Source of the DNA: Diplonema japonicum
Taxonomy: Eukaryota > Protista > Euglenozoa: Diplonemea
DNA length: 64,000 bases
Assembly (NCBI GenBank): GCA_964019335.1
Contig: OZ025658.1
Span: 620,001 to 684,000 of the forward strand
Reading direction: 5' to 3'
In this document: positions 6,001 through 63,843 of the stretch, in pieces
Numbering within the stretch: the first letter of the stretch is position 1
How the letters are laid out: each line of letters starts with the position of its first letter
Notes under the pieces: model-generated
Database searches by the model: none
Told to the model about the DNA's origin: nothing
What the model saw: only the letters and a program-made list of their open reading frames with translations
Program-made: the position numbers and the translations under genes

Positions 6001-8025
6001 ACCTGGACAACGGTGTGAACAGGACCAGCCCAGCGTACTCAGAATGGTATCCGAGCCTTCGATACCTCTCGCAGAGAACAGGGTATTCGTACAAGTCAGG
6101 CGAAGGTGAATATTACGACCTCACCAATGACAACACTGCCCTGTTGAACATGGTGACGAAAACCGAGTTTTTAGACCCGTCGGTGAGGTTGGTCGGGATC
6201 TTCGGTAACTACTACAACCCGGCTCTTAATATTTACATTTCAACGACAATAAGCATCGAACTGCTGCCGCAAGGGCTGGCGGTACCAGGGATATCAGTCG
6301 ACACCTTTCGGTTGCAAGAATGGGCGTGGGACGCTAATGGTGTAACATGGTTCATCTTGGAAATGCTTATGTTCTGCTTCACGATCGCGTACCTAACAGA
6401 AGAAGCCATCGACGCAATGGGCTCGCTGCAGATTATCGGGGAACAGTTGAGCGGAGTTGCAATGCAGATGAAAAAGCAAGGTATTTTAGGTGCCGATGGG
6501 AAATTTGAGCAGGAGGAAGACCGTTTAATCGTGTCGATCGAGGGCCGAACGGCAGCGGTCGTCCCTTGTCGATGCAAGGCGTGCACGGGTACGATATCAG
6601 GAGGGTTCATACAAACGATACAGTCCCTGACGATGCATTTTATAACCGCTTTTCGAATTGTGGTTGCGGAACTTATGTCGCATGTGCTGTCGAACTGGAA
6701 CTTCATCGACATTCTGATCGCTGTGCTGCTTTGTGTAGCTGCGGTGCTTCGTCTGCAGATAATGTACTTGTCAAGAGACCTTCCGCCGCAACAGGTTTTG
6801 TCCAACCAGACTTTTTTCAACACGGATATTCTAACCCTCGCACGCTCCACGTCTGTTCTTCACCAATTGTACGGCCCTGTCATTTTGCTTGCTTGGATTA
6901 AAATTCTCAAGCTTATTATCATCGTTCCAAAAATCGGCCCTGTCGTCGGGGCGATCATCAAAACCATGGCGAACATAAAAGTTGTTCTTTTTTTTCTGCT
7001 CTTCATCGGGCTTCTCTGGGCGTTCATTCTTGCTTTTCACGTAGGGGTTGGTGCCAAGCTGGAGGCGTATAATTCAATGTGGAGCTCGTTCTACCACACC
7101 ATTTTCATCGTGCTGGGTTATTACCCGTCTGAGGAGAGCTTTCAAAAGATGAAGGAAACGGACAGGGTGTTGGGACCATTGTTTCTTGTGCTCCTTCTTG
7201 TGTTCGGACATTTGTTGTTTCTTAACATTCTTATCGCAGTTGTTAGTGAGGTGTACACCAAGGCAATCGAGGTCACTAATCGTGATTGGTCCACAGAGAT
7301 TTCATCAATGTACAAATACTATGTTTGCAGCACGTTTGATCCGTCCTCTCAGCAGTTTCAGCAGTTTTTCTTCTGGTTCCGGCGGTCGGGCACCGTTGCG
7401 TGCCTGTCAATCTCGCCGGGCAACCCCAAGATTAAAACCCCCGGCACGCACAGCCTTCCATGGTCCACAGTCTCCCCCGCCATGCAGGCCACACACCGTG
7501 ATATGCAGCGCATTGAGAGCCTCTCTATTTCTGATGTTGACTCGAACATGCGGCATGAATTGCATCTTCTTTGCTCGCAGGTGAAGGAGCTAGAGAGAAC
7601 CCTTGACGGAAAGGCATCTGGTTTAAACGCGTAGGAAGGGGGAAAAAAGTAAAAATTTAATTTAGATTTAGAGTTTTCTTTTTCTAGAGATCACAACGGG
7701 GAAGCAGTACACTGTGCCCACAGTGGAGCTGTTGAAATCGAACGGAGCGTCGGGAAAGGTCCTAATGGATGCGATACATCTTAGGACGTATTCAGAAGTG
7801 CACAGCAAAGAGTGGGAAGAATGCTTTCCCCGCCAACGCAAAGACAAGGGTACACACCCTTCGACATCTTGGGGGCCCGACCTACAACAGGAGACCACTC
7901 TTCTCCTCGAGCCAAACCCCCCCTACCTAGCACGACTCCAAGCAATGTTTCTCGCCCAGATGCCGTCCATCTCATCGCGACAAACAGCCACCGCAGGCAC
8001 CAAGACAGCAACCGCAGAACGGTGA
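3..8025 (+). CDS. Giant ankyrin-repeat + polycystin-2/TRPP-like cation channel (5' truncated by window edge)
   Basis: The frame is open from position 3, so the TTG at 84 is probably not the start. Ankyrin motifs include KTPLHGAALNGH, GWTALHWA, GWTPLHWA and CAVHYAAYSG. The C-terminal part has TM1, a large TOP-like loop (SIVGAARLNIIR, GNYYNPALNIY), SNWNFIDILI, KIGPVVGAI and S6 LFLNILIAVVSEVY. A predicted intron 7621-7687 (GTTTAA..TTCTAG) joins in frame to a last exon 7688-8025, which is the 7714 ORF. Confidence 0.85.
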
Positions 8026-8232
8026 CCGATTAGTGTGAATTTCTCCCTGAACGGTGAGCACCCACCCGCACACCGAAATTTATCAAATTTTTCTTTTTTT
8101 TTTTCCCTCCGTGGTTTACACCAAGGGGGGAAGAAAAAACACTGAAAAGTTTCTCCTTTTTTTTTTATTCACCGCCCAAGGAAGTTTTTTTTTTTGAAAA
8201 CAGGAAAGGCTTTGGAAAAAAAAAAAAATATA

Positions 8233-9358
8233 ATGAAGGTGTGGATGATAGTGTTGTTGCTCTGTGTGGTGACGGCCACAGGACACGGCGGGGAGGCGGA
8301 AGGGGGTTGTAAGACAATGCTCGCAATCCCCGACTGGATGCAGGAAGCCTACGACAAGGACCCGGTGTCCGTCTCAGTGTGCGCCAGTCTGTTCACAAGT
8401 TTTGTCCCGATCGTGATGCTGCTGTTCTGCCCCGCCGCGCCTTCTAGAGGGGTGCTCCATGCTCTGCTCGCCTTTGCTGCAGGCTCGCTTCTAGGCGACG
8501 CCATGCTCCACTTACTGCCTCACTCTCTTGAAGGCGGCCACGGCCACTCCCATTCCCATTCTCATGATCACAGCCACGGTGGTGCGTCACATGTGGAGAA
8601 AGGTGTTGTGATGGAATTTTTGGACGCAGCGCATGTGTCTGTTCCTCACTTGTTGTTTCTTGTCGGGTTGGGTTTGTTTTTCTTCATTGAAAAGGTGTTG
8701 AGGGTGTACCAAGGTGAAGGCGGTGGGGAGTTCCACGGACACAGCCATGGGCCAAAGCACACTGCCAATGCCAATGCAAGCACAGGCAAGAAGTCTATTC
8801 TGGGCACCGCAGCTGTTTTGAACCTGATCGCTGACACAACCCACAACTTCACAGACGGGATCACCATCGCAGCGGGGTTCGCAAACTCCTTCCCTGTGGG
8901 TATCTCGACCACCCTCGCCGTTTTTATCCACGAGATCCCCCATGAGGTAGGCGACTACGCTGTCTTACTCGGGTCTGGCTTTGGGAAGAAGGGTGCCATG
9001 CTCTCCCAGTTTGTCACCGGCCTAGGTAACCTTGCTGGGACGCTTCTCATGTCTTATGCTAGCAAATGGGTTGATGGGGCTGAAGCTTATGTCCTTCCAA
9101 GTATGGCAAAATGAGGAGGTGGGGTAATCGATTTTTTTTTCCCTTTTTTTTTTTTTTTTTTCAGTCTCCGCTGGAGGTTTCGTGTACATCGCAGCGGTCA
9201 GCATCTTGCCGGAGCTGCTCAGCTCGCAGGTTACGTTGAGCAGTATTTTGATGGAGATGGTATGTTCCCCCTTCGGGGGAAAAGAAAAAAAACCCCCCCC
9301 ATAGGTGCTCATGGCTCTTGGTGTGTTCTGCATGATCGCCATCGGGTTCATCGAGTAA
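8233..9358 (+). CDS. ZIP (SLC39, LIV-1/ZIP7-like) zinc transporter
   Basis: Signal peptide, AFAAGSLLGDAMLHLLPHS, His-rich loops, HNFTDG and HEIPHEVGD. Introns 9101-9164 and 9260-9304 restore the conserved end ISAGGFVYIAAVSILPELL...VLMALGVFCMIAIGFIE*. Confidence 0.93.
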
Positions 9359-61663: not shown

Positions 61664-62507
61664 TGAGGAAAAAGCAAATACAAAATTTTTAATCTCTTGC
61701 CCCCTCTCTGTTTTTTTTTTTTTTTTTTTTTTTATTCCCCTCGCGCCCCTAATTTTTTTTCTTTTCTTTTTGAAGAAGCAATTTTGAAGAAAATTTGGTT
61801 CTTATCCCATAGATATCTACATTGCAAGGGGGTGTTTTTTTTTTTTTTAAGATATGGCAACTGGGGTGGGTGGGTGGGGTGGGGGGGGGGGGGGTTAGTA
61901 TTTAAAAAGGAAGGGGTTTCCTTTTTTAAAAAGAGGCATATAAGATTTTTAAAAAAAAGGGGGGAATGGTGTCTTCTATTCGTCCGCTTGTTATGAAAGA
62001 TCCTCTTCCCCCCTTATGTGTCCCTTGTAGTGAACAGATTTTCTATCTTTTTCTTCCCCCTCCCTTTCCCCCCTTTTTTTCCCTGTCCCTTTTGGTGCTA
62101 CCCGCACATAAAGGAGGGCAACATTGAAAGAAAAGAAAAAAAGGAGTTATCTTCTGTATTCTTTTTGAGGTGTCCCCTCCCCCCCCCCCCCCCCCCCTTT
62201 TACCCCTTCTTTTCTACCTTTTTTTTATCTGGAAGAAATAAAAAAAAAAAAAAACATAAATGCTCATTTATTTTAATCCCCTCCACAACCACTTTACTTT
62301 TTTTTTTTTACACCCCCACCCACAATTTTAAAAAAATGTTTTCATACCCCTCCCCTCACCAACGCTCGGGTTTTTTATTATTGTCCCCCTACCCGTTAAT
62401 TTTTTCTTCTTTTTTTTTTCTTTTTTTTTTAATTCTGCAAAAAAAAAAAGTGCGAAGAAAAAAGGAAAAAAAAAAAAAAAAAAGCGACAAAAAAAAATGC
62501 TTGTAAG

Positions 62508-63843
62508 ATGACAAACACCATAAAAACACCGCTGTCACTTTACATCTTTCTATGCTGCTTTCTCTGCTGCGCGATCCCATCCACCGGAAGCAGCTGCGAC
62601 AAAGCCACCCTCCCCACCGTTCAAAGCGCAACCATCACAGGCTGCGACGACGAAGTAGTGGACCAGGGGGACTCGTGCGCGTACACCCGTACAAATTACA
62701 TATGCGACACAATTCAGTGCATGGGCAACGGAACCTGGAATCTTGACAAACCAGGATGTCAAAGGGAAAACCAACCCATCGGTGCCTACGCAGAATTTGT
62801 TGTTAACGTACCAAAGTCCGCCGTGGCAACCTCTGAAATGAAATCCATAATGGAGACGGCACTGGGGAGCCCGTACGAGGTGACAAGGGTACAGACAATT
62901 TCCATCTCACCGACCATTACAAAGGTAAGGGTCGAGTACCTGATCCCGATGGCGGACAGGACCTACAACACCATGTCACAGGAGATAAATACGAAGATAG
63001 TTTCCTCGCCGGAGCTCATTGCGAAATACATGACAATAACAGATTTGAAAATAGATGAAATTGAATCGGACGATGTACCTAACCCGCCTACTGCTGGAAC
63101 GAACCCAAGCCCGGATGGAGCTTCGCCTGGAACACCCTCACAGGGTACCGGTGGGAACACCCCTTCGTCGAAAAACGTTCCTGCCGACTCTTCTGATTCA
63201 ACTGATAATTTCCCTTGGATCATCCTTGCAGTTTGCATTGGTGTTGTTTTGTTGTTGGTTTTTCTATGTGTTGCATATAAAATGTTAAATGGGGGTGGTG
63301 ATGAGGATGACAATTCAGGGCTTTCCGTTCCCAGGGAGCTTGGTTCACCGTTGGAAGGAGGATGTCCTTCTCCTGTGGTGTCTTCTACGCCTTATAGACG
63401 AAGGAAGGTTTCTCTTCCGCCGTTGCGGCCTGTTACCACTTACGAAACGGTGCCTGGGGATCCTATTACGCCGACGCTGACGCCGGCAGGGACGCACACG
63501 ACCACCACCGCCACCCAGCCCCCGAGGTCTGTTACTATTATCGAAGGGAACGATATTCAAATGGTTGAGTTCCCTGTTGGTCCCGGTGGTAGGGGGCAGC
63601 ACCTCCAGGGCGATGTGAGCAATTTGTCGATTTCACAAAGGAGCTTCGGGTCCACGTTAGGCTTCTCGAGGAACGGAAGGGAAATGGGGTATGTTTTTTT
63701 TTTTTTTTTTTTTTTTTTTTTTTTTTTTTTTTTTTTTTTTTGGAAGAAAAGAAAAAAAAAAAAAATGCAGGAGCAACAATCTTGCTACACCATTGACCCC
63801 GCATGCTGGAATCCCTCACCGGACAAAGGTTGTTACGTTCTAA
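62508..63843 (+). CDS. Type I membrane protein with Cys-rich sushi-like module
   Basis: Signal peptide, a C..GC..GDSC..C..C..NGTW...PGC module, an S/T/P linker and TM WIILAVCIGVVLLLVFLCVAY. Intron 63689-63770 gives the end ..RTKVVTF*. Confidence 0.8.

Follow-up and report, generated by a model that had tools for sequence, protein, structure and literature searches.

Introns gathered towards the ends of genes have been described in Fabrea salina and in E. caudatum, whose genus we take to be Entodinium. In the ciliate F. salina they are extremely enriched on the 3' side, which is ascribed to a streamlined genome having preferentially shed its 5' introns; in E. caudatum they are enriched at both gene ends (PMC13685798). 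The usual pattern in intron-poor unicellular organisms is a 5' bias (PMC3488318), for which Catania and Lynch gave a cap-based cause, competition between cap and polyadenylation (PMC2586383). Two further systems concern the processing of long precursors: in D. papillatum genes are co-transcribed in arrays and essentially all messenger RNAs (mRNAs) receive a leader (PMC10161547), and in trypanosomes leader addition is coupled to poly(A) addition. We consider here the introns in a 64,000-nucleotide (nt) stretch of Diplonema japonicum (contig OZ025658.1, positions 620,001 to 684,000; ‘the window’), which are concentrated in the last few hundred coding nucleotides of their genes.

All 28 genes modelled in the window lie on the + strand. 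Sixteen have no intron; 12 bear introns, or 11 if one doubtful case is set aside. Introns were rebuilt by listing each GT and AG around every break in an open reading frame (ORF) and translating the alternatives; the reconstruction thus covers coding introns, with untranslated regions (UTRs) outside its reach. Nineteen GT-AG introns of 37–82 nt resulted. An earlier reading of the sequence (the original prediction) had also proposed 19, and the coordinates that it gives, 7621, 28274, 28383, 33506–33549 and 63770, are matched; its division into 16 introns no more than 340 nt from the stop, one near a start and two internal was reproduced as well. The intronless genes go unmentioned there. Eighteen of the 19 are kept and used in the main counts. 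The one left out, 7621–7687, is doubtful: the donor is poor, and the exon it would add falls in a repeat at ~500 times single-copy depth, with a loose end at 7687; the 7.6-kilobase (kb) ankyrin/polycystin-channel ORF may have no intron.

Fifteen of the 18 introns lie inside the last 250 coding nt of the genes (7,000 nt over the 28 genes), and three in the remaining 36,701 nt, a 26-fold density in the terminal segment (P = 6e-10). The first 250 nt hold a single intron against the 15 at the other end (P = 5e-4). Mean relative position is 0.806, 17 of the 18 are in the 3' half, and a Kolmogorov–Smirnov test gives P = 1.8e-5. With the gene as the unit, the mean position becomes 0.839 (11 genes), a value attained in none of 400,000 draws. 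The bias is present in the 16 introns with outside support (P = 2e-5) and in the 12 introns of homology-supported genes taken by themselves (P = 1e-4). In all 11 genes the terminal-most intron stands 39–171 nt from the stop, hence within 250 nt, while first coding exons of the intron-bearing genes range from 65 to 2097 nt. Distance from last intron to stop does not grow as the coding sequence (CDS) lengthens (rho = 0.29, P = 0.35, 12 genes): the intron zone is fixed from the 3' side. The finer claim that introns often sit 40–115 nt from the stop holds for half of them (9/18, at 39–114 nt); the contrast drawn in the original prediction with the usual 5' bias of intron-poor eukaryotes is correct (PMC3488318), as is its taking the source for a diplonemid. 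Strong 3' enrichment of the Fabrea type is therefore seen, in this one window. The array and its introns are as follows (distances in coding nt to the CDS end).

3–63843, + strand: one-strand gene array; 28 modelled genes, 43.7 kb coding
7621–7687, + strand: ankyrin/polycystin-channel ORF (3–7634), doubtful intron at its end; donor 3.7 bits
9101–9164, + strand: ZIP transporter, intron 1; 149 nt; T-rich acceptor
9260–9304, + strand: ZIP transporter, intron 2; 54 nt; in-frame stop at the acceptor
19574–19614, + strand: mitochondrial uS8-like gene, intron 1; 174 nt
19675–19719, + strand: uS8-like gene, intron 2; 114 nt; transcript homologues
20334–20380, + strand: intron of a gene for a 123-amino-acid (aa) protein; 39 nt; acceptor picked from three
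22278–22339, + strand: LRR gene intron; 47 nt; A41 tract, read-through giving poly-lysine
28274–28319, + strand: WDR7-like gene, internal intron 1, an exception; 1137 nt; joins two WD40 ORFs
28383–28419, + strand: WDR7-like gene, internal intron 2, an exception; 1074 nt
29404–29465, + strand: WDR7-like gene, intron 3; 90 nt; A31 tract; last exon without a match of its own
31477–31524, + strand: PDZ gene intron; 132 nt; called from donor and composition, sequence support only
33506–33549, + strand: SIN1-like gene, 5'-proximal intron, an exception; 65 nt past the ATG
34922–34958, + strand: SIN1-like gene, 3' intron; 63 nt; A26 tract; junction kept in the homologue P0010
46004–46055, + strand: HisHF intron; 48 nt
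49594–49631, + strand: Aurora-like kinase, intron 1; 183 nt
49758–49800, + strand: Aurora-like kinase, intron 2; 57 nt
55503–55573, + strand: HAD/acid-phosphatase-like gene, intron 1; 238 nt; T48 tract
55641–55695, + strand: HAD-like gene, intron 2; 171 nt; T30 tract
63689–63770, + strand: intron of a gene for a 417-aa membrane protein; 73 nt; T48 then A tract; sequence support only

Outside support, from homologues, profiles or the ends of RNA-like contigs, exists for 16 of the introns, those at 31477, 63689 and 7621 being the ones without it. The most direct comes from proteins derived from transcripts. Six such proteins of 289–296 aa align gap-free with the spliced uS8-like model (292 aa) at its two junctions, and the spliced SIN1-like model (499 aa) aligns across both of its junctions with P0010 of D. 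ambulator (501 aa); the SIN1-like first exon matches the N-terminus of P0010 and of other transcript proteins. Four junctions are spanned in this way, showing removal of the introns from mRNA. A second line, available for introns up to window position 27000, comes from two read-contig sets, X1 and X2 (~98% identical; their RNA origin is a guess, and they are contigs, not raw reads). Seven of the 16 X1/X2 pieces listed reach a predicted donor, and all seven end 0–2 nt short of it with letters left over. Both sets end at 9100 (ZIP intron 1), at 19571 (uS8 intron 1) and at 20333 (the 123-aa gene), where X3 and X7 continue through the first two, to 9127 and 19846; an X1 contig also ends at 22277 (LRR gene), weak evidence given a cut in the DNA contigs at 22280. 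One X2 piece has a 183-letter tail that fits removal of both uS8 introns and then ends at 19840.

Profiles supply the third line. In the ZIP transporter the exon after intron 1 matches Zip profile positions 278–300, and intron 2 fills out the profile length: exon 2 reaches 300 of 323, and the last exon is too short for a scan. HisHF exon 1 aligns to residue 536 of 555 of the yeast chain without insertion, and the last exon supplies 15 residues. In the Aurora-like kinase, exon 1 covers Pkinase 8–199 and exon 2 covers 218–255 of 263 and also matches solved kinases, the last exon again being too short to scan. Exons 1 and 3 of the HAD-like gene both indicate PF12689, if weakly (exon 3 at E = 0.026). 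The exon downstream of 28274–28319 resembles WDR7 clusters of 800–1570 aa; a homologue search with the WDR7-like first exon gave no match.

As to class, all 19 introns are GT-AG, the last exon base is G in 16 of 18, and the donors are of the U1 type. A polypyrimidine tract before the acceptor is missing in most (at most 40% pyrimidine over the last 25 nt in 14 of 18); the U2 assignment is kept because canonical D. japonicum introns have been published with an equal departure. The non-canonical class of euglenids and hemistasiids does not apply, as every end is GT-AG. As to introners, which form families of near-identical sequence, a comparison by eye shows the 19 introns to have only donors and homopolymers in common.

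Could the bias be local, or an artefact of detection, the window being unrepresentative, with upstream introns missed or terminal ones over-called? One window and 11 genes is a small sample; some GT..AG pair can be found to extend any ORF end; three of the 19 introns lack outside support; and the 15 joints listed are all repeat joints, none of them a splice joint for X1 or X2. On the other side, every one of the 18 introns contains a homopolymer run of 7–48, whereas the spliced CDS has 49 runs of at least 6 and none above 8; and among 3306 in-frame GT..AG segments of 33–99 nt, two have a strong donor with a GC content of at most 0.42, neither with such a run. Stop-free introns hidden in the long first exons, one of the conditions under which the original prediction would have fallen, are not found, at least of the known type. 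Pieces of X1 span 9755–10895 and 25170–26023 without a gap; HisHF, RIT1, tubulin, TANGO2 and the first kinase align with profiles or homologues from near residue 1; and the addition of 20 imagined upstream introns leaves P = 4e-4. The bias also survives in homology-supported genes alone; on balance a local or artefactual origin seems quite unlikely to us.

Three further terminal introns were considered and rejected. At 12314, X1 reads straight through and the donor scores 1.1 bits; at 38309/38314, the D. ambulator homologue ends as the unspliced ORF does; the site at 48682 (5.4 bits) sits at the stop. A donor-like site at 13797 (6.4 bits) lies 13 nt ahead of the stop of the first kinase gene and is followed by no convincing downstream exon.

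The account that we prefer, tentatively and at somewhat less than an even chance, is that cis-splicing shares its long precursor with spliced-leader trans-splicing, with the result that upstream acceptors are purged and a permissive zone is left beside the 3'-processing site. That is, the genes of the array would be co-transcribed, and each would receive the leader where a pyrimidine tract and AG precede its start; upstream cis acceptors would be rivals for that leader, and their use would truncate the N-terminus; without a promoter and cap for each gene, the usual benefit of a 5' intron would be absent; upstream introns would be lost, exactly and probably by way of complementary DNA (cDNA), or would never become fixed. 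The last few hundred bases, by contrast, would adjoin the intergenic site at which trans-splicing and polyadenylation factors assemble; this neighbouring site would divert the leader from the cis acceptor, and would also help to define an acceptor that has no tract. The geometry that yields a 5' bias elsewhere may thus be inverted in a polycistronic precursor.

The setting is appropriate. The array has the marks of euglenozoan polycistrons: a single strand, with a pyrimidine tract and AG ahead of the start in 26 of 27 genes and an A-rich leader preceding the ATG. Spacers between the genes are rich in homopolymers. For three genes the closest homologues are transcript proteins of D. ambulator (74, 69 and 63% identity), and homologues place the array in Diplonema.

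Composition distinguishes the two kinds of acceptor. A 20-nt window of at least 90% pyrimidine is found in 4 of 18 introns, as against 26 of 27 of the 200-nt stretches before the ATG, 27 of 27 following stops and 10 of 202 coding windows, a contrast inflated by the unequal lengths, no intron reaching 200 nt. Most terminal introns are A-rich though the surrounding synonymous sites are T-rich. Along the CDS, T at four-fold sites climbs from 0.13 over the first fifth to 0.25–0.26 in the last three fifths (22 of 26 genes), and four-fold A falls from 0.23 to 0.15 (19 of 26); the gradient is present whether or not a gene has introns, and over the first 600 coding nt synonymous T is down by half. Such per-gene synonymous polarity would not be expected of a polycistronic array whose genes lack promoters of their own. 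AGs with at least 7 T in the preceding 20 nt number 52 in the first 600 nt against 74.3 expected from synonymous shuffles (P = 0.01), and 170 against 139.6 beyond 600 nt (18 genes); at the strictest threshold the early figure is 7 against 12.2 (P = 0.075). The depletion is a consequence of the T gradient, not a separate observation. Since cis acceptors mostly lack the tract and early T-rich AGs are depleted, purging of upstream acceptors by the leader has indirect support in the sequence; and coupling to 3' processing fits because the intron zone is anchored on the stop side. The last intron's distance to the stop increases as the spacer to the next gene shortens (rho = −0.64, P = 0.048, n = 10), a post hoc and weak correlation. 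Donors are not limiting, as unused strong ones are spread along the genes at about the opposite-strand level (23 against 21; 20 within coding sequence). Availability of targets was rejected as a cause: neither proto-splice sites nor GT show a trend along the CDS.

A second perspective dispenses with selection on position and lets conversion by cDNA copies remove 5' and central introns, sparing the last few hundred bases through internal priming or a short 3' flank. Exact losses of the reverse-transcriptase (RT) type are known in kinetoplastids, and P. papillatum has more than 2000 RT proteins (PMC11613528); preferential 5'-intron loss is the account given for F. salina (PMC13685798); and phase 0 is in excess, with 13 of the 18 introns. 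Relatives give it something too. Their proteins are ENA entries called on long contigs, and introns are placed where a contig-called protein stops or starts. All three uS8 relatives are complete at the start, with first breaks at ~0.80 (the same column as in the window), 0.60 and 0.60 along the protein. The genomic ORF P0007, which breaks at the identical column, has the first uS8 intron in common with the window, and the upstream break of P0008 and P0009 is missing in the window. Priming at the poly(A) tail, however, predicts loss from the 3' end instead, and fold-back priming at the pyrimidine tracts that follow every stop would extend across the terminal introns. Both the A-rich acceptors and the T gradient are left unexplained. 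The SIN1 relatives P0012 and P0014 read unbroken through the position of the 3' intron and appear broken near the start, which for the 3' intron looks like gain. On balance we think cDNA loss unlikely.

Gain is the core of another suggestion, on which new homopolymer-filled introns arise, or are tolerated, near gene ends beside spacers with similar A and T tracts, where young and imperfect introns would be cheapest. The homopolymer runs in all 18 introns resemble the spacers, the SIN1 3' intron is absent from P0012 and P0014, and little positional conservation among diplonemids has been reported (PMC12621601). But spacers flank both ends of a gene, which leaves the 15-to-one contrast between those ends without a cause; and retention is not cheap where, as in several genes, the last exon is required to complete the fold. 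We regard local gain as quite unlikely.

Among the polycystin relatives (19 of the 150 matches were looked up), three look whole (P0021, P0022 and P0026) and P0023 is perhaps short at its end; P0034, P0059, P0063 and P0064, chosen or noticed for their shortness, begin within the domain. A metagenome scan with the uS8 alignment gave 245 pattern matches, none confirmed, and no related locus. Because breaks differ from relative to relative, intron positions turn over: the 3' bias is real in the window and cannot be extended to all diplonemids. As a separate observation, orthologues of uS8 (18869–19833), SIN1 (33441–35021) and polycystin (35645–38317) share contigs of equal size in several relatives (963153, 1582532 and 634926; 495710 in D. 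papillatum), which suggests a conserved order of these genes.

The consequences of retention bear on a further possibility. According to the original prediction most introns meet an in-frame stop quickly if retained, so that retention would swap C-termini. Of the 19 introns, only 9 contain such a stop themselves, and 13 run into one within 30 codons; the functional part of the claim is weak. In several genes (kinase, ZIP, uS8, HisF) a conserved fold is completed by the last exon, so retention would more likely destroy the protein, and regulated C-terminal swapping is rejected as a general function. Stops might instead matter to surveillance: a junction close to the stop would allow junction-dependent nonsense-mediated decay to police the entire CDS and make upstream introns redundant. 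Diplonemids retain all three UPF proteins, UPF1–3 (PMC11888146); all three introns whose length is a multiple of three hold an in-frame stop (these lengths rest on homopolymers, possibly mis-assembled); and no strong donor was found just past a stop. But a system of this sort should not leave 16 of 28 genes intronless, nor CDS length indistinguishable between genes with and without introns (P = 0.42), and the one-per-gene spacing that it predicts leaves no sign: four genes have two terminal introns, where chance gives 2.8, so such pairs are not rarer than expected. Surveillance is the least probable of the accounts considered.

Several observations weigh against shared use of the precursor as well. 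The window, represented by contigs only, offers no observed site of leader addition or of poly(A) addition. Relatives with the same style of processing seem to be broken in the 5' half (P0012, P0014, P0034, P0059, P0063 and P0064). Three introns function at a distance from the 3' end, and two of these are A-rich and more than 1 kb off. The T-poor zone extends ~600 nt and intron-free first exons up to 2.1 kb, so purging at the 5' side alone is insufficient; and as theft of an acceptor ruins the message wherever it happens, help from the neighbouring processing site is required, which is the least supported step. Introns with pyrimidine tracts are no more terminal than the others (5/15 against 1/3, P = 1.0). 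Spacer length does not differ between intron-bearing and intronless genes (P = 0.98), and the correlation of spacer with intron position is weaker when all terminal introns are used (P = 0.059, n = 14). Finally, Fabrea salina has the same bias, and trans-splicing is not invoked there, in the accessible text (PMC13685798).

A stronger form of shared precursor use can be put forward as speculation, with the balance clearly against it: acceptors with a pyrimidine tract would take the leader and those with an A tract would be cis-spliced, efficiently only in the ~250-nt zone by the downstream trans-splicing and polyadenylation site, so that Diplonema would employ a positional and compositional code. 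Were that so, diplonemids would be an intermediate stage towards the near-total intron loss of kinetoplastids.

Other features of the window deserve record. A strong donor followed by T and A tracts, at 24912–25015, lies 134 nt ahead of the SAC3 start and is a candidate 5' UTR intron. Downstream of the polycystin stop, 38456–38640 is coding-like and homopolymer-free, with a T tract and CAG in front, a candidate small gene or unrecognised exon. The tubulin gene at 42922–44223, assigned to its family by profile match, has no introns; we assume from its appearance that it resembles a divergent beta-tubulin. A tandem pair (41016–41594 and 42227–42805) encodes an identical 192-aa product with strong codon bias and differing spacers, and the protein has no Pfam match. 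At 57590–57770 there is a broken 5' copy of the solute-binding-protein gene located at 60758, followed by ~2.8 kb of noncoding sequence free of homopolymers, which may be a mobile element. Dispersed high-copy repeats, at tens to hundreds of times the depth of single-copy DNA, occupy 7690–8050, 12400–12460 and 22660–24640, and 22660–24280 contains internal tandem units. Look-alikes of the HAD/acid-phosphatase-like gene (55150–55866) include Nucleocytoviricota clusters (score 0.91), a lead only.

The usual accounts of intron placement, by cDNA loss from the 3' end or by the benefits of a cap and promoter, predict a 5' bias, and a lineage without a promoter per gene and with the opposite bias would separate those causes. 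It would also inform the question of how one precursor serves both cis- and trans-splicing, and that of why kinetoplastids lost nearly all their introns. Intron sets mapped by RNA have been published for six diplonemids, so the mechanism is directly testable with existing data. For annotation the consequence is immediate: single-ORF gene calls in such genomes yield the wrong C-terminus for about four genes in ten. No report of a 3' intron bias in Euglenozoa was found in the accessible literature, including PMC12621601, PMC10161547, PMC11613528, PMC12817076 and PMC13598402, whose supplements may hold one; the main text of the D. japonicum genome note contains neither ‘intron’ nor ‘exon’, and the accessible part of a 590-species intron survey does not mention Euglenozoa. 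This suggests that a landscape already known as a kind, from Fabrea salina, appears unreported in Euglenozoa.

Compared with Fabrea salina, then, the window shares a concentration of introns at the 3' side of genes in a protist with few introns, contrary to the usual 5' bias (PMC13685798); it differs in its one-strand array from a trans-splicing lineage, its ~250-nt zone anchored on the stop and its mostly A-rich acceptors. The introns themselves, with GTATG donors, lengths of ~40–60 nt and A replacing the pyrimidine tract, are like the canonical introns described for D. japonicum: GT-AG, (G)/GTATG donors, a median of ~41 nt and the same replacement (PMC12621601). That paper, in its accessible text, gives no analysis of position along the gene and draws no link between A tracts and trans-splicing, unlike the present analysis. 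Paradiplonema (Diplonema) papillatum has one-strand arrays and GT-AG introns in ~41% of genes, against 12 (or 11) of 28 here; its introns are much longer, with a median below 1 kb and a maximum of 72 kb, and the accessible text states no positional bias (PMC10161547). With the 5'-biased unicellular organisms, in which RNA-processing factors or cDNA loss are the explanations given (PMC3488318, PMC2586383), the window has in common a strong bias in genes with few introns; its polarity is reversed.

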